Below, piece by piece: positions 15,181 to 27,934 of a stretch of DNA of 32,000 bases (its first letter is position 1; every line of letters begins with the position of its first letter). The DNA comes from Microcystis aeruginosa NIES-2549. Lineage in GTDB: Bacteria > Cyanobacteriota > Cyanobacteriia > Cyanobacteriales > Microcystaceae. The stretch lies in contig NZ_CP011304.1 in assembly GCF_000981785.2 (NCBI RefSeq), forward strand, positions 3,630,001 to 3,662,000, in the 5' to 3' direction. Below the pieces are notes generated by a model that searched no databases, was not told the DNA's origin, and saw only the letters and a list, made by a program, of their open reading frames with translations. A program made the position numbers and the translations under genes.

Positions 15181-15285
15181 GGCCTCTTAGGTTTGGTGGG
15201 TAAAATGTATTCTAGGATACAGTCCCGCCAGCGAGCGAGTGGAACGAACCACAAAGACACAAAGGACACAAAGAATAAGAGAGCC
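15181..15285 (+). repeat. ~105-bp intergenic repeat, copy 1 (family shared with 18608-18826)
   Basis: GGCCTCTTAGGTTTGGTGGGTAAAATGTATTCTAGGATACAGTCCCGCCAGCGAGCGAGTGGAACGAACCACAAAGACACAAAGGACACAAAGAATAAGAGAGCC aligns along its length with 18608-18826 apart from scattered substitutions and the internal expansion in that copy. Confidence 0.7.
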
Positions 15286-15310: not shown

Positions 15311-16591
15311 TTAGGATTTGTGCCGGGAGATTTGCGCTTTTAATTCCCTTGCTTGTGTCAATAAATCCGCTTGGGTTAGACTAATTTGTTCTTGGGTGGC
15401 CATCCATTTCAGTTGTACCGTGCCATTTTCAGCCTCAGCATCCCCCAAAATTATACAGCCCACGGCCTTAGCTCGATCGGCCCGTTTAAATTGTTTTCCG
15501 AAAGCGCTGCCGCTTAAGTCTAACTCAACGCTAAACCCCAATCCGCGTAATTGTTGCGCTAACACCACACTGCGGGCCTCAGCTTTTTCTCCTTTGGAGA
15601 CGAGATAAAAATCGGGAACCAAAAAAGATAAAGATTGCTTTTGTTGTAATAATATAATCAGACGTTCTAAACCGATCGCCCAACCCACTGCTGGCGTGTC
15701 TGGACCGCCTAATTGAGCTATTAAACCATCATAACGACCACCACCGCAAACCGTGGCTTGAGCGCCTAAATCATCGGACTGAATTTCAAAGGCCGTATGG
15801 GTGTAATAGTCCAATCCTCGCACTAAACAGGGATTAAGATTATAGATAACTCCCAAATCAGTTAGTAAAGATTGCACCCGTTCAAAATGCTTTTGAGAAT
15901 CACTGCCGAGATGCTCAAGAATACTGGGGGCATTCTCACAGATAATCTTGGTTTTCTCGTCCTTACTATCCAAAATTCGCAGGGGATTTTTTTCTAATCT
16001 CTGTTGAGAATCCGCGTCTAAATCAGCTTTGTAGGGAGTCAAATAATCTAGCAGGGCCTGACGATAATTTTGCCTATCTTGGGCATTTCCCAGGGAATTA
16101 AGGTCTAATTTTAGGTTTTCTAGCCCCACAGCTTTTAATATCTCGCTGGCAAGGGTAATTACTTCCACATCCGCCCTAGGGTCATCAGTTCCCAACAATT
16201 CGACCCCAATTTGATGAAACTGTCGCTGCCTACCCGCTTGCGGACGTTCATAACGAAACATCGGCCCCTTATACCAGAGTCTTTGTACTCCTCCGGCGGC
16301 CTGTAATTTGTGTTCAATGTAGGCGCGAACGACCCCAGCCGTTCCCTCCGGTCGCAAAGTCAGGGAACGTTGACCGCGATCAAAGAAAGTGTACATTTCT
16401 TTACCCACCACGTCCGTCGCTTCCCCGATACCCCGTTCAAAAAGTTGCGTCTGTTCAAAAATGGGAGTTCGTATCTCTTGATACAGCGCAGTCCCTAAAA
16501 TTCTGCTGGCAGTTTCCTCTAACCACTGCCAGTAACCGATCTCCGCCGGTAAAATATCTTTTGTGCCTCGGATTGCCTGGATTTCGCCCAT
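15311..16591 (-). CDS. hisS: histidine--tRNA ligase
   Basis: 426 aa. MGEIQAIRGTKDILP..., class II aaRS motifs (LRPEGTAGVVRAY, FRYERPQAGRQRQFHQIG, GGGRYDGL). Confidence 0.97.
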   Translation of the reverse strand: MGEIQAIRGTKDILPAEIGYWQWLEETASRILGTALYQEIRTPIFEQTQLFERGIGEATDVVGKEMYTFFDRGQRSLTLRPEGTAGVVRAYIEHKLQAAGGVQRLWYKGPMFRYERPQAGRQRQFHQIGVELLGTDDPRADVEVITLASEILKAVGLENLKLDLNSLGNAQDRQNYRQALLDYLTPYKADLDADSQQRLEKNPLRILDSKDEKTKIICENAPSILEHLGSDSQKHFERVQSLLTDLGVIYNLNPCLVRGLDYYTHTAFEIQSDDLGAQATVCGGGRYDGLIAQLGGPDTPAVGWAIGLERLIILLQQKQSLSFLVPDFYLVSKGEKAEARSVVLAQQLRGLGFSVELDLSGSAFGKQFKRADRAKAVGCIILGDAEAENGTVQLKWMATQEQISLTQADLLTQARELKAQISRHKS

Positions 16592-16611
16592 AGTTCTCTG
16601 TATTTTTATCC

Positions 16612-18522
16612 CTATTTGAACAATCTTAAACCGCTTAGAGTCACTAATACCGTCGATCCTTCATGACCGATAACACCCAGAGGTAAAGTTATATCACCGG
16701 CAAAATTGGCTATTAGCAATATGCCGATAAACGCGAGGGCGAAAGTGATATTCTGTTTAACGATGCGATTGGCACGACGACCAAGGTTAATCGCGCTGGG
16801 AATTTTGGCTAAATTATCGGACATAAGGATAATATCGGCCGTTTCCAAGGCCACATCACTACCAGCTTTTCCCATGGCAATCCCCACATTAGCCATAGCT
16901 AAAGCGGGCGCGTCATTAATGCCATCCCCCACCATAGCGACAGTGTGATATTTTTCTTGCAGATTTTGGATAACGCTTAACTTATCTTCTGGCAGTAAAT
17001 CAGCGTAAACTTCCTCAATACCGAGTTTTTCAGCGACTTGATCGGCACTTTGTTGATTATCACCCGTAATTAAAACGATATGTTCGATACCGATCTTTTT
17101 TAGCTGCTTCACCAGATTAACTGCCGATTCCCGCAGGGTATCGGCCACAGCGATCGCACCAAGTATCTGATTCTCTTGTACTACCCATACCAGGGTTTTG
17201 CCTTCTTTTTGTAAACGTTCGCGCATAGCTAGAATATTCTGGTCAAGATCAGTAATATGGTCACGAATATAGGCAAAATTGCCCACAGATACCGACTTAT
17301 CGGCAATTTTTCCCGTGATACCCCGTCCCGATACCGCTTGCACCTGATTAGCACTGAAGAAATTTATACCACGTTCCCTGGCTGTGGCGGTAATAGCGGA
17401 TCCGATGGGATGTTCCGAACAGGATTCTAGGGCTGCAGCCACCGCTAACACCTCATTTTCACTGACTGCATGGATAGGGATAATTTCCACCACTTGCAAC
17501 TTACCAAGGGTGAGAGTGCCGGTTTTATCAAAAGCGATCGCTCGTATGCGGCCGATCATCTCCAATCTTGCGCCATTTTTGAATAAAATCCCCTGTTTTG
17601 CGCCGTTAGCGATACCCGATAACAAAGCTGGCATAATTGAGGCCATTAAAGCACAGGGAGAGGCCACCACAAGAAAAATTAAGGCCCGATAGATAGTAGT
17701 TTCCCAGGTCCAACCCCAGAGAAAAGGCGGTAAAATCCCGAAAATTAAGCCCAAAATCACGATAATTTTCGCATAACCCCGCTCGAAACCTTCGATAAAC
17801 TCTTGGGAGGGAGGGGATTCATTTTGTGCTTTTTCTACCAAACGAATCACCCTCTCAATTAAGCGACTTTCGGGGGGAGTTTCCACCTTTAAACGTAGCA
17901 CTCCCGCACCGTTGAGAGTTCCCGCAAAGACTTCTTCACCGATGGTTTTATCCACGGGAAGGGATTCTCCGGTAATTGGCGCTTGATTGATGGGACTGTT
18001 TCCCTCCATAATAATGCCGTCAATGGGGATTAATTCACCCGGTTTGACCAAAACTGTGTCACCTATCCGTAATTGCTTGATAGGAACCTCTTTTTCCCTA
18101 TCTCCCGTGATTAATCTAGCAGTATCGGGAGTCATCGCCATGAGAGAACGAATATTGCGATCGGTTTTTGCCATGGCAATCTGTTCTAATGCACCACTAA
18201 TGGCGAAAATCAGGATTAAAACGGCTCCATCGATGATGAGATAGTAATTACTATCCCAGAGTCCCAAAATCGCCGCCCCCAAGGCCGCTACAATCATTAA
18301 CAGGTCCACATCCAGTTCTTTTTCCTCCCATAAAGTCGTCAATCCTGCTTGGGTACTCTCGTATCCTCCCACCAGATATGCGATCGCTAGTAGGATAAAA
18401 GCCGGGCCGATCAGATTAAGGTGTAGGCATAACCAACCAAAAAAGACTAAAATAGCGCAAATTCCTGCGGCAACTGCCGAGGAATACTCAGACAACCAAG
18501 AGGACGAGATACTCTGAATCAT
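16612..18522 (-). CDS. heavy-metal P1B-type ATPase, SPC / HEGxT subtype (CoaT-like, P1B-4)
   Basis: 636 aa with DKTGTLT, TGDN, GDGINDAP, the transmembrane SPC motif (VVASPCALM) and the C-terminal GHEGSTVLV. There is no N-terminal metal-binding domain. The stop lies 20 nt upstream of the hisS start, suggesting co-transcription. Confidence 0.9.
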   Translation of the reverse strand: MIQSISSSWLSEYSSAVAAGICAILVFFGWLCLHLNLIGPAFILLAIAYLVGGYESTQAGLTTLWEEKELDVDLLMIVAALGAAILGLWDSNYYLIIDGAVLILIFAISGALEQIAMAKTDRNIRSLMAMTPDTARLITGDREKEVPIKQLRIGDTVLVKPGELIPIDGIIMEGNSPINQAPITGESLPVDKTIGEEVFAGTLNGAGVLRLKVETPPESRLIERVIRLVEKAQNESPPSQEFIEGFERGYAKIIVILGLIFGILPPFLWGWTWETTIYRALIFLVVASPCALMASIMPALLSGIANGAKQGILFKNGARLEMIGRIRAIAFDKTGTLTLGKLQVVEIIPIHAVSENEVLAVAAALESCSEHPIGSAITATARERGINFFSANQVQAVSGRGITGKIADKSVSVGNFAYIRDHITDLDQNILAMRERLQKEGKTLVWVVQENQILGAIAVADTLRESAVNLVKQLKKIGIEHIVLITGDNQQSADQVAEKLGIEEVYADLLPEDKLSVIQNLQEKYHTVAMVGDGINDAPALAMANVGIAMGKAGSDVALETADIILMSDNLAKIPSAINLGRRANRIVKQNITFALAFIGILLIANFAGDITLPLGVIGHEGSTVLVTLSGLRLFK

Positions 18523-18607
18523 GGATCGATGGCAATTACTTTTCTCCCCATTCTAGAAAAAATTAGATCGATGCAGAAAACCCCTATGTGGTATTCACCG
18601 GTGCGAA

Positions 18608-18826
18608 GGCTCTCTTAGGTTTGCTGGTTAAAATGTATTCTAAGATACAGTCCTGCTGGCGAGGGAGTGGAAGGAACCACAGAGGCACAAAGGACACAAA
18701 GATCGATCACTACATTCAGTTAAACTGATCAGACAAAGAAGAGTGGAAGGAACCACAGAGGCACAAAGGACACAAAGATCGATCACTACATTCAGTTAAA
18801 CTGATCAGACAAAGAAGAAGAGAGCC
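18608..18826 (+). repeat. intergenic repeat, copy 2 (expanded)
   Basis: It has the same 5' ~90 nt and the same 3' ...AGAGAGCC end as 15181-15285, with extra internal sequence that includes a 2 x 76-bp tandem duplication. Confidence 0.75.
18665..18816 (+). repeat. perfect 2 x 76-bp tandem duplication
   Basis: GAGTGGAAGGAACCACAGAGGCACAAAGGACACAAAGATCGATCACTACATTCAGTTAAACTGATCAGACAAAGAA occurs at 18665-18740 and again at 18741-18816. Confidence 0.9.
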
Positions 18827-18836
18827 GTGCGAGTTA

Positions 18837-18923
18837 CGAGGAAGCGGAAAATTGGCTATTAGAGGACGAGTATGAACCCCGAAAGGGACGAATTTCGGCA
18901 GTAGAGATATAATTTCCTTATCT
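18837..18923 (+). repeat. 5' arm of the ~106-bp repeat that hosts intron copy 1 (3' arm at 21521-21538)
   Basis: CGAGGAAGCGGAAAATTGGCTATTAGAGGACGA...GGCAGTAGAGATATAATTTCCTTATCT is shared with 22091-22177. GAAGCGGAAA at the 5' end is complementary to TTTCCGCTT in the 3' arm. Confidence 0.6.
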
Positions 18924-21520
18924 GTGCGAAACGTTTAGGCATGAAATAGGGTTGAAATGCCTGAAATAACCGCCTAGTAAGGTCTTCAGTCCCCCGACTG
19001 AATCTAAGAGGTCAACCCAGACCAACCTTATAACTGTTTATATGTCCCGACGTTTAGTATCACCCGATACAAAATAGGCAAGGGGACTCAAGGTCAAAAC
19101 ACTTTGTAACAACTATTTACAATCGTTACAAAGGTGAGAGTAACGGCGATAGCCACCCCCAGTTTCAGAAGTCACAACCCTGAAATTGAAGCGGGGAACG
19201 GAAGGCTCCGAGGTGCAACCTAACACCAGCAGCGAGACCACTGCCAACAGCCCAGGATTAAGCGAAAGCTGAACGTCTGACATGAACCATCGTAACAATT
19301 AAGCAGTGAAATAAGGTTGACACACTGCGTTCAAAAGAACAAGGGGAATAAGTGAGGGACTTGATAAGCTACTCACACAGACCTTTTAAAGTACCCCGGT
19401 GGAAAAGACGAATCTAAAGGATGGAAAGCCCATATAAACGGAACGTGATAACCCCTTTCAGGCTCTGAGTATCGGTCGAAATACCCAGTAGTGAGAAGTG
19501 TAAGCGCAAGCCTTAAAGGGGGTGAGATGTAACCAAAAGCCAACGCTTGACGTTAATAGTCAAGATACGCTAACAGGTTACGGTTTGATTGTAAGGATAG
19601 AGTCTAGTAGGAGTCTATATGACGAAATCGAGAAAAGGTAAAGGGTTCGGGAAACCGAAAACCACTAAGACTACGAATGTATGGAAGGCTATCAATTGGG
19701 CGAAAGTCCAAAGATATGTCTTCAAGCTCCAAAAGAGGATATACCAAGCGGCTAAATCGGGACAGGATGCAAAGGTTAGAAGGTTGCAACGTCTATTGGT
19801 GAAATCGTACTACGCTCGTCTATTAGCGGTTCGCAAAGTAACCCAAGATAATCAAGGAAAGAAAACAGCAGGAGTTGATGGGAAGATAGTAATATCCCCA
19901 GAACAAAGGCTAAATCTAACCGAAGAAATTAAGGGAACACTTAAAGCAAAACCGTTAAGAAGGGTATGGATTCCTAAACCCGGCAGGGATGAAAAACGCC
20001 CATTAGGAATACCAACCATCAAAGACAGAGCTAGACAAGCGGTGATTAAATCGGCACTTGAACCAGAATGGGAAGCAAAAATGGAAGGAACCAGCTATGG
20101 TTTCCGACCCGGAAGGTCTGCCCATGACGCAATATCGAGGATATACCTCAGCATTAATAAGGGTAATTACTTTGTGTTAGATGCTGATATTGCCAAGTGT
20201 TTTGACCGAATTAATCACAACTTCCTACTGTCAAGAATTCATTGTCCCAGTGCCTTGAAAAGAGACATAAAACAATGGCTCAAAGCAGGAGTATTGGATA
20301 AAGGCGTATTTGAAGAAACAGAAACAGGGACACCACAAGGAGGGGTAATAAGTCCACTACTTGCTAACATCGCACTGGATGGAATGGCAAGATTAATCGA
20401 AACACTATTCCCCAAAAAGGGAAATGGTACAAATCAAGCTGTTTTAATAAGGTACGCCGATGATTTTGTGGTGATTTCACCTTCACTCGAAATCATTGAA
20501 CAGTGCAAAACTGCTATCTCCGAATGGTTAAAACCGATAGGATTAGAACTCAAACCAGAAAAAACCAGAGTGTGTCATACACTCAAACCCATTGAATATA
20601 ATGGAAAAACGGAAGAACCAGGATTTGACTTTCTAGGATTCAACATCAGACAATACCCAGCCGGAAAATATAAAGCGGGAAAAATATGTAAAGGAACACC
20701 CAAGACATTCCTAACACACATTAAACCTAGCCAAAAAGCAGTTAAAGCCCACACAGAAGCGATTAAAGGTGTAATCAAAAAACACAAAACCGCACCTCAA
20801 TCAGCCCTGATTAGTCGACTAAACCCAATCATAAGAGGATGGGGGAACTACTATTCAGGAGTAGTATCTATGGATACTTTCACAAAACTAGACCATACAA
20901 TCTGGTTGATGTTAAGGGCATGGACAGTATCAAGATGCAGAAAAGCGAACTACGAAAAGCTGAGAAATTACTTTAGACCGGGTACAGTTAAACTCAGCAA
21001 TGGGAAAGAAAGACAAGAATCCTGGTTATTTCAAACCAAAGACGGTCTCCACTTATGGCAACATAATTGGATACCAATTGTCAGACATACCTTAGCACGC
21101 TCCGACGCATCACCATTCGACGGAAATTGGACCTACTGGGCAACCAGAAGAGGACAAGCAATCGACACACCGACAAGAGTAGCCAAACTACTTAAGAAGC
21201 AACAAGGCAAGTGTAACCGATGTGGGCAATACTTCACCCCATCGGACTTAATTGAAGTTGACCACATCCACCCTCTCAGCCTAGGCGGAAAGGATGAATA
21301 TAAAAACCTTCAATTACTACACCGCCACTGTCATGATGAAAAATCAGCTTCAGATGGAAGCCTCGATATACCCACAAGACAAAGTATACAGGCAACCACA
21401 GAGAAGTCAAGCGGTATCCTTAACAAAGGAACAATCAAACTAGGAGCCGTGTGAGGTGAAAGTCTCAAGCACGGTTCTGAATGGGAGGGGAGGTCGGTGA
21501 CGACCTTCTCGACCCCTAAT
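18924..21520 (+). mobile_element. group II intron, copy 1 (2,597 nt, ORF-containing)
   Basis: The 5' end is GTGCG at 18924-18928. The IEP ORF starts ~695 nt in. A 34-nt domain V GAGCCGTGTGAGGTGAAAGTCTCAAGCACGGTTC lies at 21444-21477. A domain VI-like hairpin has a GTGA loop and an unpaired A 8 nt before the proposed 3' end ...CCCCTAAT (21520). Confidence 0.85.
19619..21454 (+). CDS. ltrA: group II intron-encoded protein: reverse transcriptase / maturase / HNH endonuclease
   Basis: 611 aa. RT blocks include PKPGRDEKRPLGIPTIKDR, FDRINH, GTPQGGVISPLLANI and YADDFVV. Maturase X motif RGWGNYY. C-terminal HNH CNRCGQ...VDHIHPLSLGG...LLHRHCH. Confidence 0.95.
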   Translation: MTKSRKGKGFGKPKTTKTTNVWKAINWAKVQRYVFKLQKRIYQAAKSGQDAKVRRLQRLLVKSYYARLLAVRKVTQDNQGKKTAGVDGKIVISPEQRLNLTEEIKGTLKAKPLRRVWIPKPGRDEKRPLGIPTIKDRARQAVIKSALEPEWEAKMEGTSYGFRPGRSAHDAISRIYLSINKGNYFVLDADIAKCFDRINHNFLLSRIHCPSALKRDIKQWLKAGVLDKGVFEETETGTPQGGVISPLLANIALDGMARLIETLFPKKGNGTNQAVLIRYADDFVVISPSLEIIEQCKTAISEWLKPIGLELKPEKTRVCHTLKPIEYNGKTEEPGFDFLGFNIRQYPAGKYKAGKICKGTPKTFLTHIKPSQKAVKAHTEAIKGVIKKHKTAPQSALISRLNPIIRGWGNYYSGVVSMDTFTKLDHTIWLMLRAWTVSRCRKANYEKLRNYFRPGTVKLSNGKERQESWLFQTKDGLHLWQHNWIPIVRHTLARSDASPFDGNWTYWATRRGQAIDTPTRVAKLLKKQQGKCNRCGQYFTPSDLIEVDHIHPLSLGGKDEYKNLQLLHRHCHDEKSASDGSLDIPTRQSIQATTEKSSGILNKGTIKLGAV

Positions 21521-21643
21521 TCCTTTCCGCTTTTCTTCAAAACCCTTATTCTGTATGCTGTTTAGCAAGAATTAGCGATCGCCGCTTAACCAACTCAGGC
21601 CCTAATAGGTAAAATATAAGCTGGGAGATTATAGTGAGAAGTT

Positions 21644-21850
21644 ATGAAGTTGACTGTAACACTTGACCGTGACGAGGATGGGGTTTGGGTTGTAGAATGC
21701 CCCAGTATTCCGGGTTGTGTCAGCCAAGGTCAAACGAGAGCAGAAGCTCTAGAAAATATCAGAGATGCGATTATCGCTTGCCTTGAAGTTCGTGCAGAAC
21801 GTGGACTACCGCTCACGATTGAAACTTGTCAAGTAGAGGTAATGGCCTAA
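21644..21850 (+). CDS. hicB: HicB-family antitoxin (UPF0150-type)
   Basis: 68 aa. MKLTVTLDRDEDGVWVVECPSIPGCVSQGQTRAEALENIRDAI is the HicB/UPF0150 N-terminal fold signature. The gene is immediately followed by hicA. Confidence 0.8.
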   Translation: MKLTVTLDRDEDGVWVVECPSIPGCVSQGQTRAEALENIRDAIIACLEVRAERGLPLTIETCQVEVMA

Positions 21851-21852
21851 TC

Positions 21853-22080
21853 ATGTCCTCTGCTCTTCCTGTTCTCAGCGGACGTGAAGTAGTCCGAATA
21901 TTTGAAACCTTTGGCTGGCAAGTTGCGCGTCAAAGTGGAAGCCATATCATTATGGTTAAGGAGGGTGAACAGGTAACACTCTCTGTTCCTGATCATCGTG
22001 AAGTGGCTAAAGGTACGCTTCGTAGTCTTATTCGTACTGCTGGAATTACTTTACAAGAATTTGTTTCTGGCATGAGATGA
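21853..22080 (+). CDS. hicA: HicA-family toxin (mRNA interferase)
   Basis: MSSALPVLSGREVVRIFETFGWQVARQSGSHIIMVKEGEQVTLSVPDHREVAKGTLRSLIR is typical of HicA/YcfA. I chose ATG 21853, 2 nt after the hicB stop, rather than the longer track ORF starting at 21826. Confidence 0.8.
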   Translation: MSSALPVLSGREVVRIFETFGWQVARQSGSHIIMVKEGEQVTLSVPDHREVAKGTLRSLIRTAGITLQEFVSGMR

Positions 22081-22090
22081 ACAAACAAGT

Positions 22091-22177
22091 CGAGGAAGCG
22101 GAAAATTGGCTATTAGAGGACGAATTTGAACCGGTAGAGGGACGACTTTCGGCAGTAGAGATATAATTTCCTTATCT
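22091..22177 (+). repeat. 5' arm of the host repeat for intron copy 2 (3' arm at 24775-24792)
   Basis: Collinear with 18837-18923 at a constant offset of 3,254 nt. Seven substitutions cluster in one 23-nt patch. Confidence 0.6.
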
Positions 22178-24774
22178 GTGCGAAACGTTTAGGCATGAAA
22201 TAGGGCTGAAATGCCTGAAATAACCGCCTAGTAAGGTCTTCAGTCCCCCGACTGAATCTAAGAGGTCAACCCAGACCAACCTTATAACTGTTTATATGTC
22301 CCGACGTTTAGTATCACCCGATACAAAATAGGCAAGGGGACTCAAGGTCAAAACACTTTGTAACAATTATTTACAATCGTTACAAAGGTGAGAGTAACGG
22401 CGATAGCCACCCCCAGTTTCAGAAGTCACAACCCTGAAATTGAAGCGGGGAACGGAAGGCTCCGAGGTGCAACCTAACACCAGCAGCGAGACCACTGCCA
22501 ACAGCCCAGGATTAAGCGAAAGCTGAACGTCTGACATGAACCATCGTAACAATTAAGCAGTGAAATAAGGTTGACACACTGCGTTCAAAAGAACAAGGGG
22601 AATAAGTGAGGGACTTGATAAGCTACTCACACAGACCTTTTAAAGTACCCCGGTGGAAAAGACGAATCTAAAGGATTGAAAGCCCATATAAACGGAACGT
22701 GATAACCCCTTTCAGGCTCTGAGTATCGGTCGAAATACCCAGTAGTGAGAAGTGTAAGCGCAAGCCTTAAAGGGGGTGAGATGTAACCAAAAGCCAACGC
22801 TTGACGTTAATAGTCAAGATACGCTAACAGGTTACGGTTTGATTGTAAGGATAGAGTCTAGTAGGAGTCTATATGACGAAATCGAGAAAAGGTAAAGGGT
22901 TCGGGAAACCGAAAACCACTAAGACTACGAATGTATGGAAGGCTATCAATTGGGCGAAAGTCCAAAGATATGTCTTCAAGCTCCAAAAGAGGATATACCA
23001 AGCGGCTAAATCGGGACAGGATGCAAAGGTTAGAAGGTTGCAACGTCTATTGGTGAAATCGTACTACGCTCGTCTATTAGCGGTTCGCAAAGTAACCCAA
23101 GATAATCAAGGAAAGAAAACAGCAGGAGTTGATGGGAAGATAGTAATATCCCCAGAACAAAGGCTAAATCTAACCGAAGAAATTAAGGGAACACTTAAAG
23201 CAAAACCGTTAAGAAGGGTATGGATTCCTAAACCCGGCAGGGATGAAAAACGCCCATTAGGAATACCAACCATCAAAGACAGAGCTAGACAAGCGGTGAT
23301 TAAATCGGCACTTGAACCAGAATGGGAAGCAAAAATGGAAGGAACCAGCTATGGTTTCCGACCCGGAAGGTCTGCCCATGACGCAATATCGAGGATATAC
23401 CTCAGCATTAATAAGGGTAATTACTTTGTGTTAGATGCTGATATTGCCAAGTGTTTTGACCGAATTAATCACAACTTCCTACTGTCAAGAATTCATTGTC
23501 CCAGTGCCTTGAAAAGAGACATAAAACAATGGCTCAAAGCAGGAGTATTGGATAAAGGCGTATTTGAAGAAACAGAAACAGGGACACCACAAGGAGGGGT
23601 AATAAGTCCACTACTTGCTAACATCGCACTGGATGGAATGGCAAGATTAATCGAAACACTATTCCCCAAAAAGGGAAATGGTACAAATCAAGCTGTTTTA
23701 ATAAGGTACGCCGATGATTTTGTGGTGATTTCACCTTCACTCGAAATCATTGAACAGTGCAAAACTGCTATCTCCGAATGGTTAAAACCGATAGGATTAG
23801 AACTCAAACCAGAAAAAACCAGAGTGTGTCATACACTCAAACCCATTGAATATAATGGAAAAACGGAAGAACCAGGATTTGACTTTCTAGGATTCAACAT
23901 CAGACAATACCCAGCCGGAAAATATAAAGCGGGAAAAATATGTAAAGGAACACCCAAGACATTCCTAACACACATTAAACCTAGCCAAAAAGCAGTTAAA
24001 GCCCACACAGAAGCGATTAAAGGTGTAATCAAAAAACACAAAACCGCACCTCAATCAGCCCTGATTAGTCGACTAAACCCAATCATAAGAGGATGGGGGA
24101 ACTACTATTCAGGAGTAGTATCTATGGATACTTTCACAAAACTAGACCATACAATCTGGTTGATGTTAAGGGCATGGACAGTATCAAGATGCAGAAAAGC
24201 GAACTACGAAAAGCTGAGAAATTACTTTAGACCGGGTACAGTTAAACTCAGCAATGGGAAAGAAAGACAAGAATCCTGGTTATTTCAAACCAAAGACGGT
24301 CTCCACTTATGGCAACATAATTGGATACCAATTGTCAGACATACCTTAGCACGCTCCGACGCATCACCATTCGACGGAAATTGGACCTACTGGGCAACCA
24401 GAAGAGGACAAGCAATCGACACACCGACAAGAGTAGCCAAACTACTTAAGAAGCAACAAGGCAAGTGTAACCGATGTGGGCAATACTTCACCCCATCGGA
24501 CTTAATTGAAGTTGACCACATCCACCCTCTCAGCCTAGGCGGAAAGGATGAATATAAAAACCTTCAATTACTACACCGCCACTGTCATGATGAAAAATCA
24601 GCTTCAGATGGAAGCCTCGATATACCCACAAGACAAAGTATACAGGCAACCACAGAGAAGTCAAGCGGTATCCTTAACAAAGGAACAATCAAACTAGGAG
24701 CCGTGTGAGGTGAAAGTCTCAAGCACGGTTCTGAATGGGAGGGGAGGTCGGTGACGACCTTCTCGACCCCTAAT
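22178..24774 (+). mobile_element. group II intron, copy 2 (2,597 nt)
   Basis: Same boundaries as copy 1 (GTGCG at 22178, ...CCCCTAAT at 24774). I saw only three substitutions in the 695 nt 5' of the ORF. The IEP translation is identical. Confidence 0.85.
22873..24708 (+). CDS. ltrA: group II intron-encoded RT/maturase/HNH protein (identical to 19619..21454)
   Basis: The 611-aa translation is identical to copy 1 in the ORF track. Confidence 0.95.
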   Translation: MTKSRKGKGFGKPKTTKTTNVWKAINWAKVQRYVFKLQKRIYQAAKSGQDAKVRRLQRLLVKSYYARLLAVRKVTQDNQGKKTAGVDGKIVISPEQRLNLTEEIKGTLKAKPLRRVWIPKPGRDEKRPLGIPTIKDRARQAVIKSALEPEWEAKMEGTSYGFRPGRSAHDAISRIYLSINKGNYFVLDADIAKCFDRINHNFLLSRIHCPSALKRDIKQWLKAGVLDKGVFEETETGTPQGGVISPLLANIALDGMARLIETLFPKKGNGTNQAVLIRYADDFVVISPSLEIIEQCKTAISEWLKPIGLELKPEKTRVCHTLKPIEYNGKTEEPGFDFLGFNIRQYPAGKYKAGKICKGTPKTFLTHIKPSQKAVKAHTEAIKGVIKKHKTAPQSALISRLNPIIRGWGNYYSGVVSMDTFTKLDHTIWLMLRAWTVSRCRKANYEKLRNYFRPGTVKLSNGKERQESWLFQTKDGLHLWQHNWIPIVRHTLARSDASPFDGNWTYWATRRGQAIDTPTRVAKLLKKQQGKCNRCGQYFTPSDLIEVDHIHPLSLGGKDEYKNLQLLHRHCHDEKSASDGSLDIPTRQSIQATTEKSSGILNKGTIKLGAV

Positions 24775-24793
24775 TCCTTTCCCCCTTTCTTCG

Positions 24794-27700
24794 ATGCTAT
24801 CCTTACTAAAAAAGCTCTGGAATTGGCTAAAATCGCTCTTTATTGCCAGTCCAAAGGCAATTAACCCCAAAGAAGTCAAAAATACTCCTCCAGAACCCAG
24901 CGATGGGGAATATGAAGGGATATTGATGGGGTTATTCGAGCAGGTGGCGGCGGGAACCACTACCGGCGGGTTACGGGGATGGCTATACAGTCGCCATTGT
25001 GACGATAAAAAGCTGGCGCGGTGGTTAGAGGTCAAAAGCGAGGAATGGCTACAGTATCCGGAAGATTATCAAACTTTAGGGCGGGATCTGGCGGCTTTAG
25101 GGAAGGTGATGACGGGAAATCTGGGGGAAGTGTCCCAACGGATTAGCCTCCAGTTACGCGACGCGGTGAGGGATGTTTCCGGTGTGGAGGGGGAAAATCT
25201 ATGCCCAAAGGAGACGGATTTAACGGAAGTGGTTCAGGATGCCGAATTCTGGTTTGAGCAAGGAAACCAGAAATACATGAATGGGGATTTTATCGGCGAG
25301 ATCGCATCCTACGATCAAGCTTTAGAATTTAAACCCGATGACCCTGATGCTTGGAACAACCGAGGGGTTGCGTTAGGTAATTTAGGCAGATTTGAACAAG
25401 CGATCGCATCCTTTGATCGAGCTTTAGAAATTAAACCCGATTACCATCAAGCTTGGGACAACCGAGGGATTGCGTTGCATAAATTAGGCAGATTTGAACA
25501 AGCGATCGCATCCTACGATCGAGCTTTAGAATTTAAACCCGATTTCCATGAAGCTTGGATCAACCGAGGGGTTGCGTTAGGTAATTTAGGCAGATTTGAG
25601 GAAGCGATCGCATCATATGATCGAGCTTTAGAAATTAAACCCGATTTACATCAAGCTTGGTACAACCGAGGGATTGCGTTAAGGAATTTAGGCAGATTAG
25701 CAGAAGCGATCGCATCCTACGATCGAGCTTTAGAAATTAAACCCGATGACCATGAAGCTTGGAACAACCGAGGGATTGCGTTAAGGGATTTAGGCAGATT
25801 AGAAGAAGCGATCGCATCCTACGATCGAGCTTTAGAAATTAAACCCGATTTCCATGAAGCTTGGTACAACCGAGGGATTGCGTTAGGTAATTTAGGCAGA
25901 TTAGAAGAAGCGATCGCATCCTACGATCAAGCTTTAGAATTTAAACCCGATAAGCATGAAGCTTGGAACAACCGAGGGATTGCGTTAGGTAATTTAGGCA
26001 GATTGGCAGAAGCGATCGCATCCTATGATCGAGCTTTAGAAATTAAACCCGATGACCATGATGCTTGGAACAACCGGGGGGTTGCGTTAGCTGATTTAGG
26101 CAGATTTGAACAAGCGATCGCATCTTATGATCGAGCTTTAGAAATTAAACCCGATTTCCATCTAGCTTGGTACGGCCGAGGGTGGGCCGTTTGTTCTCTG
26201 AGTAAAAATCGCGTTTCTACTCCCAGTCTAGAAGCTCTCATTTACCGTAAACCGATAGTAGCCCTTAATGACCGAGAACCCCATATTTTCGCCCTCCGGG
26301 AGGCACTTACCCACCTCATTCAAGGATCGCCTCCGTGGGGGCAAATTTATCGCTATCTAGGGGAAGCTTATCTGAAACATTCCCAGTATAAAGAGAATGC
26401 TAGTCCCTATTGGCGCGAAGCGATCCGACATTATCAAATCGCTTTACCGATTCTCAGCGAAAAAGACTTCCCCGAAGATCATTTAGAAATTCTGCAAGGA
26501 TTGATCCGCGCTCATCTTTCCCTACAGGAAATCCCTGAAGCGCGATTCTATCAACAACAGGGGCGCCACCTTTTTACCAGACTACGCGCCCAGAAACGCG
26601 ATAAACCGGCTTTTGAGAGAAAATTCAGCAGTTTTAGTCACCTAGAAATCGATTTACTGATCGAGGAAAATCATCCTCTAGACGCAATTGAACAGGCAGA
26701 ATTTTATAAAAATCGTTGTTTGACTTGGATTCTCGATAATTGGCAAGAAAACCCCACCAGTCCCGATTATGCCACTATCCAAAGCCTGACAGGTCCGAAT
26801 AAGGCGATTATTTACTGGTATCTCAGCGAGGACAATCTCACCACCTTTATTATCACCCCAGAGGCTGATCCCGTCATTGTCGAGCCAGAACAACGCCGTC
26901 AACCAGCGCGACAGTTTCGGACTTGGTTAACTGAATGGGATAAACAATACCTTGACTATGCCAGTAAAAAAGAAACGGAGAATAAACAAAATCACCCCTG
27001 GAGATTGTCACTTAACAGCCGTTTTGCCCAATTAAAGCGGATTTTACAGATCGATAAAATTCTCGAACCTTTGCCAGTTTCCGTTGATTCCCTGATTCTC
27101 ATCCCCCACCGGGATCTGCACCGCTTCCCCCTACATACCCTCTTCCCCGAAAAATACACCGCCACCTATCTCCCCTCTGCTCAGGTCGGTTTGCGTCCCC
27201 AGTCCGGCGATTCCTCCTATTCTCCCCTCCTCAGCGTCGAAGACCCCAAAACGGAACAAAAACCCATGGATTTCGCCCAACTGGAATCAGCGATTATTAG
27301 CCATATCCTGCAACCGAGCCAGAGAATTAGCACGAAAAAGGCCTCACGGGAAAACGTCCGCAACGCCCTCGAAAATGCCCATAAAACCTTTCATTTCACC
27401 GGTCATGGCTATTATGACTCTTTTCGCCCCCAAGCCTCTGCGATCGCCCTTAGCGATGGCTTATTGACCGTCCGGGATATCCGTGCGCTGAACCTCTCTA
27501 GTTACCGTCTCGTCTGTCTGGCTGCCTGTGAAACCGCTCTCACCGGTAAGGATGGCATTACTACCGAATACGTCGGCCTCGTCAGTGCTTTCTTGGCAGC
27601 CGGTGCGACTAATGTGGTCAGTACCCTCTGGCCGGTGAAGGAGATTTCTAGTGCTTGGTTTATGATTAACTTCTATCAAAGATTATTAGCGGGTGAATCC

Positions 27701-27934
27701 CCGGCCCTAGCTCTGAAAAATACACAAAATTGGTTAAAAAATATCACTTGGCAGCAACTAGCTAACTGGATCGAGCAACTTGGACAACTTCCCGACCTAA
27801 TGGAATGGGTCGATCGACTGGAGGCGCGGGCGGCGAATATTTTAAAGGAAGGCAGTACAATAGGGCTAGATCAGCTAACAGAATACAGTGATCCTTACTA
27901 TTGGGCAGCCTATACCCTGACTGGACAGGACTAA
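24794..27934 (+). CDS. TPR-repeat protein with C-terminal CHAT (caspase-like) protease domain
   Basis: 1,046 aa with ~10 TPR units (consensus AWNNRGIALGNLGRLEEAIASYDRALEIKPD). The C-terminal region carries a caspase-type His (FHFTGHGYYD) and Cys (LVCLAACETALTG), as in CHAT domains. Confidence 0.9.
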   Translation: MLSLLKKLWNWLKSLFIASPKAINPKEVKNTPPEPSDGEYEGILMGLFEQVAAGTTTGGLRGWLYSRHCDDKKLARWLEVKSEEWLQYPEDYQTLGRDLAALGKVMTGNLGEVSQRISLQLRDAVRDVSGVEGENLCPKETDLTEVVQDAEFWFEQGNQKYMNGDFIGEIASYDQALEFKPDDPDAWNNRGVALGNLGRFEQAIASFDRALEIKPDYHQAWDNRGIALHKLGRFEQAIASYDRALEFKPDFHEAWINRGVALGNLGRFEEAIASYDRALEIKPDLHQAWYNRGIALRNLGRLAEAIASYDRALEIKPDDHEAWNNRGIALRDLGRLEEAIASYDRALEIKPDFHEAWYNRGIALGNLGRLEEAIASYDQALEFKPDKHEAWNNRGIALGNLGRLAEAIASYDRALEIKPDDHDAWNNRGVALADLGRFEQAIASYDRALEIKPDFHLAWYGRGWAVCSLSKNRVSTPSLEALIYRKPIVALNDREPHIFALREALTHLIQGSPPWGQIYRYLGEAYLKHSQYKENASPYWREAIRHYQIALPILSEKDFPEDHLEILQGLIRAHLSLQEIPEARFYQQQGRHLFTRLRAQKRDKPAFERKFSSFSHLEIDLLIEENHPLDAIEQAEFYKNRCLTWILDNWQENPTSPDYATIQSLTGPNKAIIYWYLSEDNLTTFIITPEADPVIVEPEQRRQPARQFRTWLTEWDKQYLDYASKKETENKQNHPWRLSLNSRFAQLKRILQIDKILEPLPVSVDSLILIPHRDLHRFPLHTLFPEKYTATYLPSAQVGLRPQSGDSSYSPLLSVEDPKTEQKPMDFAQLESAIISHILQPSQRISTKKASRENVRNALENAHKTFHFTGHGYYDSFRPQASAIALSDGLLTVRDIRALNLSSYRLVCLAACETALTGKDGITTEYVGLVSAFLAAGATNVVSTLWPVKEISSAWFMINFYQRLLAGESPALALKNTQNWLKNITWQQLANWIEQLGQLPDLMEWVDRLEARAANILKEGSTIGLDQLTEYSDPYYWAAYTLTGQD
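25343..26158 (+). repeat. 8 x 102-bp near-identical tandem repeats (coding TPR units 2-9)
   Basis: Units start at 25343, 25445, 25547, 25649, 25751, 25853, 25955 and 26057. Each contains ...GCGATCGCATCCTA(C/T)GATC(G/A)AGCTTTAGAA(A/T)TTAAACCCGAT.... Confidence 0.9.

Follow-up and report, generated by a model that had tools for sequence, protein, structure and literature searches.

The group II intron RmInt1 of Sinorhizobium meliloti homes into multiple genomic copies of ISRm2011-2, and occupied and empty copies of this target coexist among strains (PMC1802570). In Thermosynechococcus elongatus, the TeI3/TeI4 introns form families that are defined by their exon-binding site (EBS) sequences and have near-identical copies in one chromosome (PMC2882425), and Arthrospira/Limnospira platensis carries at least 150 group II intron copies (PMC2853384). 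Here, we describe a stretch of 32,000 nucleotides from Microcystis aeruginosa NIES-2549 (NZ_CP011304.1, positions 3,630,001 to 3,662,000; the window in the following) in which two near-identical group II introns lie on the same strand on either side of a hicBA toxin-antitoxin (TA) gene pair.

The Microcystis intron resembles RmInt1 in that one intron fills several copies of a repeated target in one genome (PMC1802570). It differs in its intron-encoded protein (IEP), which has an HNH domain here and lacks the D and En domains in RmInt1, and in its target, which is a local 105-nt duplication flanking hicBA here and a dispersed insertion sequence in RmInt1. With TeI3/TeI4 the intron shares a cyanobacterial host, an encoded IEP and near-identical copies at several sites, but in Microcystis the copies are far fewer (three seen), neither twintrons nor derivatives lacking the open reading frame (ORF) were seen, and the host is mesophilic. 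The closest IEPs outside Microcystis are those of Limnospira/Arthrospira (~78-82% identity), which have the same RVT_N-RT-GIIM-HNH architecture. In total, the behavior of the Microcystis intron is ordinary for mobile group II introns and involves no new mechanism.

Combining the anatomy of the window with the alleles present in other Microcystis strains, we suggest that, very probably, the target was duplicated first, together with the acquisition of hicBA, and that the intron subsequently homed into the two targets in two separate events, in NIES-2549 and NIES-2481 only.

Twin blocks and their intron-less counterparts

Base-by-base self-comparison of the window at an offset of 3,254 nt gave 12 mismatches over 2,702 nt between 18837-21538 and 22091-24792. 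An earlier note on this DNA had described these segments as collinear blocks at this constant offset, each consisting of an 87-nt 5' arm, a 2,597-nt intron and an 18-nt 3' arm, and the description proved exact, including the counts of the substitutions and the positions given for those in the intron: (i) seven in the 5' arm (18870, 18872, 18879, 18880, 18881, 18883 and 18892), (ii) three in the 2,597 nt of the intron (18952 T/C, 19113 C/T and 19423 G/T), and (iii) two in the 3' arm (21529 and 21531). In the 100 nt adjoining the blocks identity falls to 30% and 28%, and a repeat search of the window returns the same block pair with sharp ends; as had been noted, the sequence outside the arms is unrelated and the homology stops there. 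The observation that the arms are more diverged than the introns also stands, with 9/105 differences in the arms vs 3/2597 in the intron (Fisher p = 2.9e-11), i.e. arms that are ~70x more diverged. Immediately around the two insertion points, from -31 to +8, the arms are identical. The two window copies of the IEP have the same 611-aa translation, and the 552 nt between the blocks hold hicB and hicA, both of which match Pfam families.

An assembly artefact can be dismissed as the source of the 2.7-kb repeat pair: window positions 18314-25454 are base-identical in the NIES-2481 chromosome, the annotation of NIES-2549 contains the exact IEP three times (it is present also in NIES-2481), and both assemblies are based on PacBio sequencing of 20-kb libraries.

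Intron-less copies of the target, which the earlier note had proposed to look for, are plentiful. The junction TTCCTTATCT/TCCTTTCC (the slash marking the insertion point) is uninterrupted in 62 site copies at 47 other Microcystis loci from genomes and metagenomes (labeled L in the following); a metagenome scan with the 28 nt preceding the insertion point contributed 36 further loci, which were pooled with the genome loci. Intron ends were found in none of the 47 loci, i.e. 0/62 sites are occupied. L026, a metagenome scaffold identified by means of the exact HicA protein, aligns without gaps to window 16906-25229 minus both introns, has only two mismatches to the window in the arms and cassette, and carries the same allele in each arm; judged by this alignment, L026 is the pre-invasion allele. 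The arm-hicBA-arm arrangement without introns and with the same cassette junctions is found in L012, L010+L008, L015, L026, L033, L036, L009, L055, L059 and others.

The arms themselves derive from a gene. The 5' arm reads in frame as ..EEAENWLLEDE(Y/F)EP(RK/VE)GR(I/L)SAVEI followed by a stop codon, with the intron 11 nt past the TAA, and the seven differences between the two 5' arms fit coding variation (two synonymous third-position changes, Y/F, I/L and RK/VE). The intact gene, here referred to as gene X, encodes a protein of 102 aa with the same C-terminus and lies between the same P-type ATPase and TPR-CHAT genes (L003, L005, L006 and L014). It has 97 homologues across cyanobacteria, in many genera and at 55-68% identity, and is without a match in Pfam and NCBIfam. 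In unduplicated alleles, the empty site reads TAATTTCCTTATCT/TCCTTTCC..TTC G ATG and is located directly upstream of the TPR-CHAT ATG. Based on these alignments, we consider the 105-nt repeat to be the 3' end of gene X together with the adjoining spacer, ending 1 nt short of the TPR-CHAT start codon. We therefore abandon the proposal that the arms belong to a dispersed ~106-bp repeat family: in a search with a degenerate codon pattern for AENWLLED(D/E) in one genome per species, all Microcystis matches were at this locus, and every copy recovered from genomes and metagenomes, with the host genome covered only in part, lies between the same P-type ATPase and TPR-CHAT genes. The arms are thus a duplication confined to this one locus, made up of the end of gene X and the spacer.

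Two arm variants, A (GAGTATGAACCCCGAAAG) and B (GAATTTGAACCGGTAGAG), were each found in either arm position as well as in unduplicated sites. We take the arm differences to be an old A/B allelic dimorphism that has been shuffled by recombination between strains, and it follows from this distribution that arm divergence is not a clock for the age of the duplication. The arms would be more diverged than the introns because they carry this old dimorphism, while the introns are recent copies of one master.

These alleles bear on two alternative histories. In the first, a plain segmental duplication, the intron would have homed once, the arm-intron-arm unit would have been duplicated with hicBA arriving between the copies, and the arms would have diverged thereafter. 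Although collinear direct repeats with sharp ends agree with such a history, it is extremely improbable: intron-less arm-hicBA-arm alleles with the same junctions exist in many strains, including the exact counterpart L026; the excess divergence of the arms over the introns is ~70-fold and consists of pre-existing population alleles; and two precise intron losses would be needed in every other lineage. In the second, both sites would have been filled early in Microcystis and the introns lost precisely in every other sampled strain. Nothing specific argues for this scenario, to which we assign a practically negligible probability, except that precise loss via cDNA recombination is possible in principle; against it, the 0/62 occupied sites extend over very different haplotypes, including unduplicated sites with an intact gene X, and the introns, which differ from each other at 3/2,597 positions and have an identical copy at another site of the genome, point to a recent arrival.

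The search for further intron copies suggested in the earlier note yielded a third one at an unrelated site, L002 3306-5902 (CP012375.1, ~2.91 Mb). This copy is identical to copy 2, its flanks are unrelated to the arms, and its insertion junction is TAATTGTTCTATTA/A. Compared with related Microcystis introns, the derived C at intron position 190 (19113) is unique to copy 1 and the derived T at intron position 500 (19423) is common to copies 2 and 3. Given that copy 1 and copies 2/3 carry different derived substitutions, we suggest that they are separate descendants of a common master.

The same data address a further alternative, in which one retrohoming event was followed by copying at the DNA level, the second site being filled by gene conversion or ectopic homologous recombination between the arms. 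The arms would supply the flanking homology, and the sequence from -31 to +8 is indeed identical around both introns. However, the markers at -32 and at +9/+11 differ and match L026, so that the copied tract could extend no more than 31 nt in the 5' direction and 8 nt in the 3' direction, and 8 nt is far under the minimal homology for RecA-type recombination, which is ~20 to 30 bp in E. coli. Moreover, copy 1 and copy 2 each have their own derived substitution, and DNA-level copying is unnecessary in the presence of an intact RT-HNH protein and of a third copy without arm homology, which indicates that the element moves without flanking homology. We consider this alternative very unlikely.

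The genes on either side of the third copy, a methyltransferase gene and a C2185-like gene, are both on the minus strand; the intron is antisense to them and overlaps each gene call by a few nt. In this orientation, host transcripts of these genes would be unable to splice it out.

The intron, its protein and target recognition

The introns begin with GTGCG at 18924 and 22178 and end with CTAAT at 21520 and 24774, in agreement with the conserved 5' GUGYG and 3' AY, and these boundaries are fixed by the gap-free alignment to the empty allele L026. Both copies match Rfam RF00029 over the full model (1-77/77) with 59.1 bits vs a gathering score of 40, and domains V-VI have an AGC triad, a GAAA loop and an A aligned to the consensus bulged branch-point A. 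The IEP contains the Pfam domains RVT_N, RVT_1, GIIM and HNH with YADD at residue 279, scores 340.9 bits against the NCBIfam group II reverse transcriptase (RT)/maturase equivalog TIGR04416 (cutoff 300), and is identical in sequence in all three intron copies; its ORF (19619-21454) stops 12 nt inside the domain V match. The closest solved relative is the T.el4h maturase-RT (PDB 6ME0, E = 4e-101). By sequence-level criteria, the element passes as a mobile group II intron with its encoded protein, and splicing and mobility are predicted. In public annotation, the IEP ORFs are named "retron-type RNA-directed DNA polymerase". The genome papers on NIES-2481 and NIES-2549 do not discuss the introns (the word 'intron' has 0 matches in the text of the NIES-2481 paper), and a literature search restricted to titles found none combining Microcystis and 'group II intron'.

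Pairing between intron and target was examined for EBS1 and EBS2 and the corresponding intron-binding sites (IBS1 and IBS2) in the 5' exon. The putative EBS1 pairs with 5' exon positions -7 to -2 through six Watson-Crick pairs. The hairpin loop at 19362-19368 is taken as the putative EBS1 because the loop co-varies with the 5' exons, the EBS1-loop columns in related introns reading TACTAA and their 5' exons ending in AGTA, and because its stem has undergone a compensatory change from GTGAG/CTCAC to GTAAG/CTTAC in related introns; the local fold of the hairpin alone is not significant (z = -1.6). The putative EBS2 forms seven pairs, one of them G.U, with positions -14 to -8, a match of marginal significance. 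Compared with related introns, this segment is a short hypervariable patch inside a conserved context, and we regard GAAATTG as a weak candidate for EBS2. A group II ribonucleoprotein (RNP) normally reads a region that is covered here by the identical -31 to +8 sequence, and in the 32-kb window the 15-nt target, with up to 1 mismatch, occurs only at the two occupied sites.

Based on these data, the order of events was very probably as follows: (i) the 552-bp hicB-hicA cassette inserted just upstream of the TPR-CHAT gene in the Microcystis population; (ii) this insertion duplicated the adjoining 105 nt, i.e. the last 24 codons of gene X, the stop codon and the spacer, and would have given rise to two good intron targets on the same strand, 657 nt apart; and (iii) the intron later entered each of these targets separately in the lineage of NIES-2549 and NIES-2481 only, the same intron also inserting at the third, unrelated site. 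The likely route is RNP-mediated retrohoming, in which reverse splicing guided by EBS2/IBS2 (-14 to -8) and EBS1/IBS1 (-7 to -2) would be followed by HNH cleavage and reverse transcription. The earlier note had proposed two independent homings and no segmental duplication. The separate homings are retained, with L026, the other intron-less alleles and the third copy in their favor; the second part has to be modified in that the empty target would have been duplicated beforehand.

Several points weigh against this model. The census of arms, introns and targets covers the genomes of NIES-2549 and NIES-2481 only in part. Multi-copy introns break short-read assemblies, and occupied sites may be under-represented in metagenome contigs; among the examined loci, no contig ends in intron sequence. 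The EBS2 complementarity could be due to chance, with ~0.2 to 0.7 matches expected in domain I, and the sites of related introns do not pair with their EBS2-equivalent segment. Finally, position -1 forms a U.U mismatch at both window sites and an A-U pair at the third site, and the window sites may therefore not be the optimal homing site of the intron.

Other Microcystis strains harbor a sister intron family (L016-L025) with an IEP of 615 aa that is ~91% identical and with the EBS1 loop TACTAA. These introns sit directly upstream of ndhS and of an RPE65-family gene, and the copies in L019-L021, L024 and L025 are 5'-truncated. An attempt to derive a homing-site consensus from them failed, as they represent a different EBS family and occupy other insertion sites.

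Features of the twin-intron locus (window coordinates; L, compared loci)
Feature	Position	Strand	Remarks
Gene X N-terminal remnant	18523-18587	+	ATG at 18529, MAITFLPILEKIRSMQKTP...; matches 5' end of intact gene in L006, L003, L005, L014
Filler replacing middle of gene X	18588-18836	+	From repeat search and alignment with intact gene X alleles
5' arm 1	18837-18923	+	Last 24 codons of gene X, allele A ..EDEYEPRKGRISAVEI*; TAA 18910-18912 plus 11 nt to insertion point
IBS2	18910-18916	+	TAATTTC
IBS1	18917-18923	+	CTTATCT
Group II intron copy 1	18924-21520	+	2,597 nt, GTGCG...AT; T at 18952, C at 19113 (derived), G at 19423 (ancestral)
Putative EBS2	19182-19188; copy 2 22436-22442	+	GAAATTG; complementarity scan
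Putative EBS1	19362-19368; copy 2 22616-22622	+	TGATAAG in hairpin loop
IEP copy 1	19619-21454	+	611 aa; RVT_N, RT with YADD, maturase (GIIM), HNH endonuclease
Domains V-VI copy 1	21442-21520	+	Rfam RF00029
3' arm 1	21521-21538	+	TCCTTTCCGCTTTTCTTC
hicBA cassette	21539-22090	+	552 nt; same cassette and junctions in intron-less strains
Promoter-like site	21586-21615	+	Consensus match only
hicB	21644-21850	+	68 aa, PF15919, E = 6.6e-09, above gathering score
hicA	21853-22080	+	75 aa, PF07927, E = 1.2e-19, above gathering score
5' arm 2	22091-22177	+	Duplicated gene X 3' end, allele B ..EDEFEPVEGRLSAVEI*
Group II intron copy 2	22178-24774	+	Identical to third copy elsewhere in genome
IEP copy 2	22873-24708	+	Same 611-aa protein
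Domains V-VI copy 2	24696-24774	+	Rfam RF00029
3' arm 2	24775-24792	+	TCCTTTCCCCCTTTCTTC; 1 nt before TPR-CHAT start codon
TPR-CHAT protein gene	24794-27934	+	1,046 aa, Pfam; original target-site copy in its 5' untranslated region

The hicBA cassette and a hot spot for insertions

In the cassette, hicB precedes hicA by 2 nt, and by family match the pair is predicted to be a HicAB type II TA system; the HicB match covers profile positions 3-56 of 123, i.e. the N-terminal half only. A promoter and terminator scan gave matches at the consensus level only, no more than in shuffled sequence, and a repeat search found no inverted repeats or other transposon-like ends at the cassette borders. For the origin of the cassette together with the 105-nt duplication, we considered Campbell-type integration of a one-arm circle or, alternatively, homology-facilitated illegitimate recombination. 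The ATG of a 29-codon ORF (22077-22166, MNKQVEEAENW...VEI) shares nucleotides with the stop codon of hicA (ATGA). In strains with an 8-nt-longer junction (L009 and L012) a stop codon closes the frame, so that the ORF most likely arose by accident when the arm was duplicated.

Five architectures of the locus occur in the population: (1) intact gene X, a single site and the TPR gene; (2) the same with a second, Rpn-family cassette; (3) intact gene X followed by arm, hicBA and arm; (4) disrupted gene X, i.e. the window haplotype with 1 to 5 copies of a 76-nt unit, followed by arm, hicBA and arm; and (5) disrupted gene X, a single arm and the TPR gene, with no hicBA (L034, L047 and L056). The three loci of the last type may be either ancestral or collapsed.

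The 2.7-kb direct repeats are an obvious substrate for deletion of hicBA, and hicBA might be kept between the introns because collapse by intron-intron or arm-arm recombination would kill the cell via stable HicA. Chromosomal TA modules can stabilize flanking DNA, e.g. in superintegrons, and are generally known to reduce loss of neighboring DNA; in addition, hicA and hicB match their Pfam families, and NIES-2481, a strain distinct from that of the window, has the arrangement without a single base change. Nevertheless, we find this explanation unlikely. HicB is short (68 aa), with a Pfam match confined to the N-terminal half of the model; many intron-less strains retain the cassette with repeats of no more than 105 nt around it; and the persistence in NIES-2549 and NIES-2481 says little given that these strains are close relatives. 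Moreover, the existence of alleles with a disrupted gene X, a single arm and no hicBA (L034, L047 and L056) implies that the hicBA-free state is viable. Stabilization of flanking DNA by a TA module is the idea that the earlier note had raised for hicBA between the long direct repeats; at this locus, natural hicBA-less alleles exist.

In a further reading, the two introns and hicBA as an 'exon' could form one composite unit, and hicBA would be skipped when the 5' splice site of the first intron is joined to the 3' splice site of the second. We give this idea very little chance; what suggests it is the geometry, i.e. two same-strand introns around hicBA, and nothing beyond the geometry. If true, skipping of hicBA would restore the ancestral 5' untranslated region of the TPR-CHAT mRNA, hicBA would travel as cargo on a lariat or recombination circle able to enter an empty target again, and HicA addiction would penalize loss of the segment.

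The surroundings of the cassette are variable as well. In the window haplotype, gene X is reduced to its first ~20 codons (18529-18587) and its last 24-27 codons, and the filler between these remnants contains two perfect 76-nt tandem units (18665-18740 and 18741-18816). The unit is present once in L012 and L047, twice in the window, L010 and L026, at least three times in L033 and L056, and five times in L034. Filler segment 18612-18702 has an 89% copy at 15184-15274, in the spacer beside hisS, which suggests that it is a small dispersed repeat.

Many strains carry the second cassette, which encodes a 266-aa Rpn-family recombination-promoting nuclease/putative transposase (DUF2887) and is inserted in the TPR-CHAT gene ~110 nt from its start. 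The direct repeats on either side of it are ~160 nt long and comprise the site from -31 to +18 together with the first 106-111 nt of the TPR-CHAT gene. The cassette is sometimes found in tandem arrays and sometimes downstream of hicBA, resulting in three target copies in one locus (L059). Examples are L061 (reverse strand) 1-1300, L006 4882-7967 and L059 768-2760, corresponding to window 24775-24905; the cassette is absent from the strain of the window. The locus looks like a hot spot for cassette insertion, and each cassette gain at this hot spot would multiply the intron target. The window and NIES-2481 differ by 32 substitutions, all of which lie in 15695-18313 (hisS and the P-type ATPase gene) and none in 18314-25454, a pattern resembling a recombination tract that stops where the hot spot begins. 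In several loci (L043 ~1065-1136, L049 ~897-997, and also L030, L051, L058 and L060), a hicB fragment is fused directly to the arm at GAAGTTCGA/CGAGTATG (the slash here marking the fusion point), and in other strains this 9-nt junction, GAAGTTCGA/CGAGTATG, is found after the Rpn-family gene, which implies that nested deletions and rearrangements have used these breakpoints repeatedly.

Implications

The locus corrects the public "retron-type RNA-directed DNA polymerase" label on the IEP ORFs and provides a clean natural case in which population data directly reveal the order of events. In the scenario outlined here, insertion of a cassette would have duplicated a target and a retroelement would have filled both copies, so that the 105-nt repeats on either side of a TA pair grew to 2.7 kb. 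NIES-2549 and NIES-2481 would therefore offer a convenient system, in a bloom-forming cyanobacterium, for analyzing intron homing, intron-mediated deletion and any stabilizing effect that the TA pair may have.

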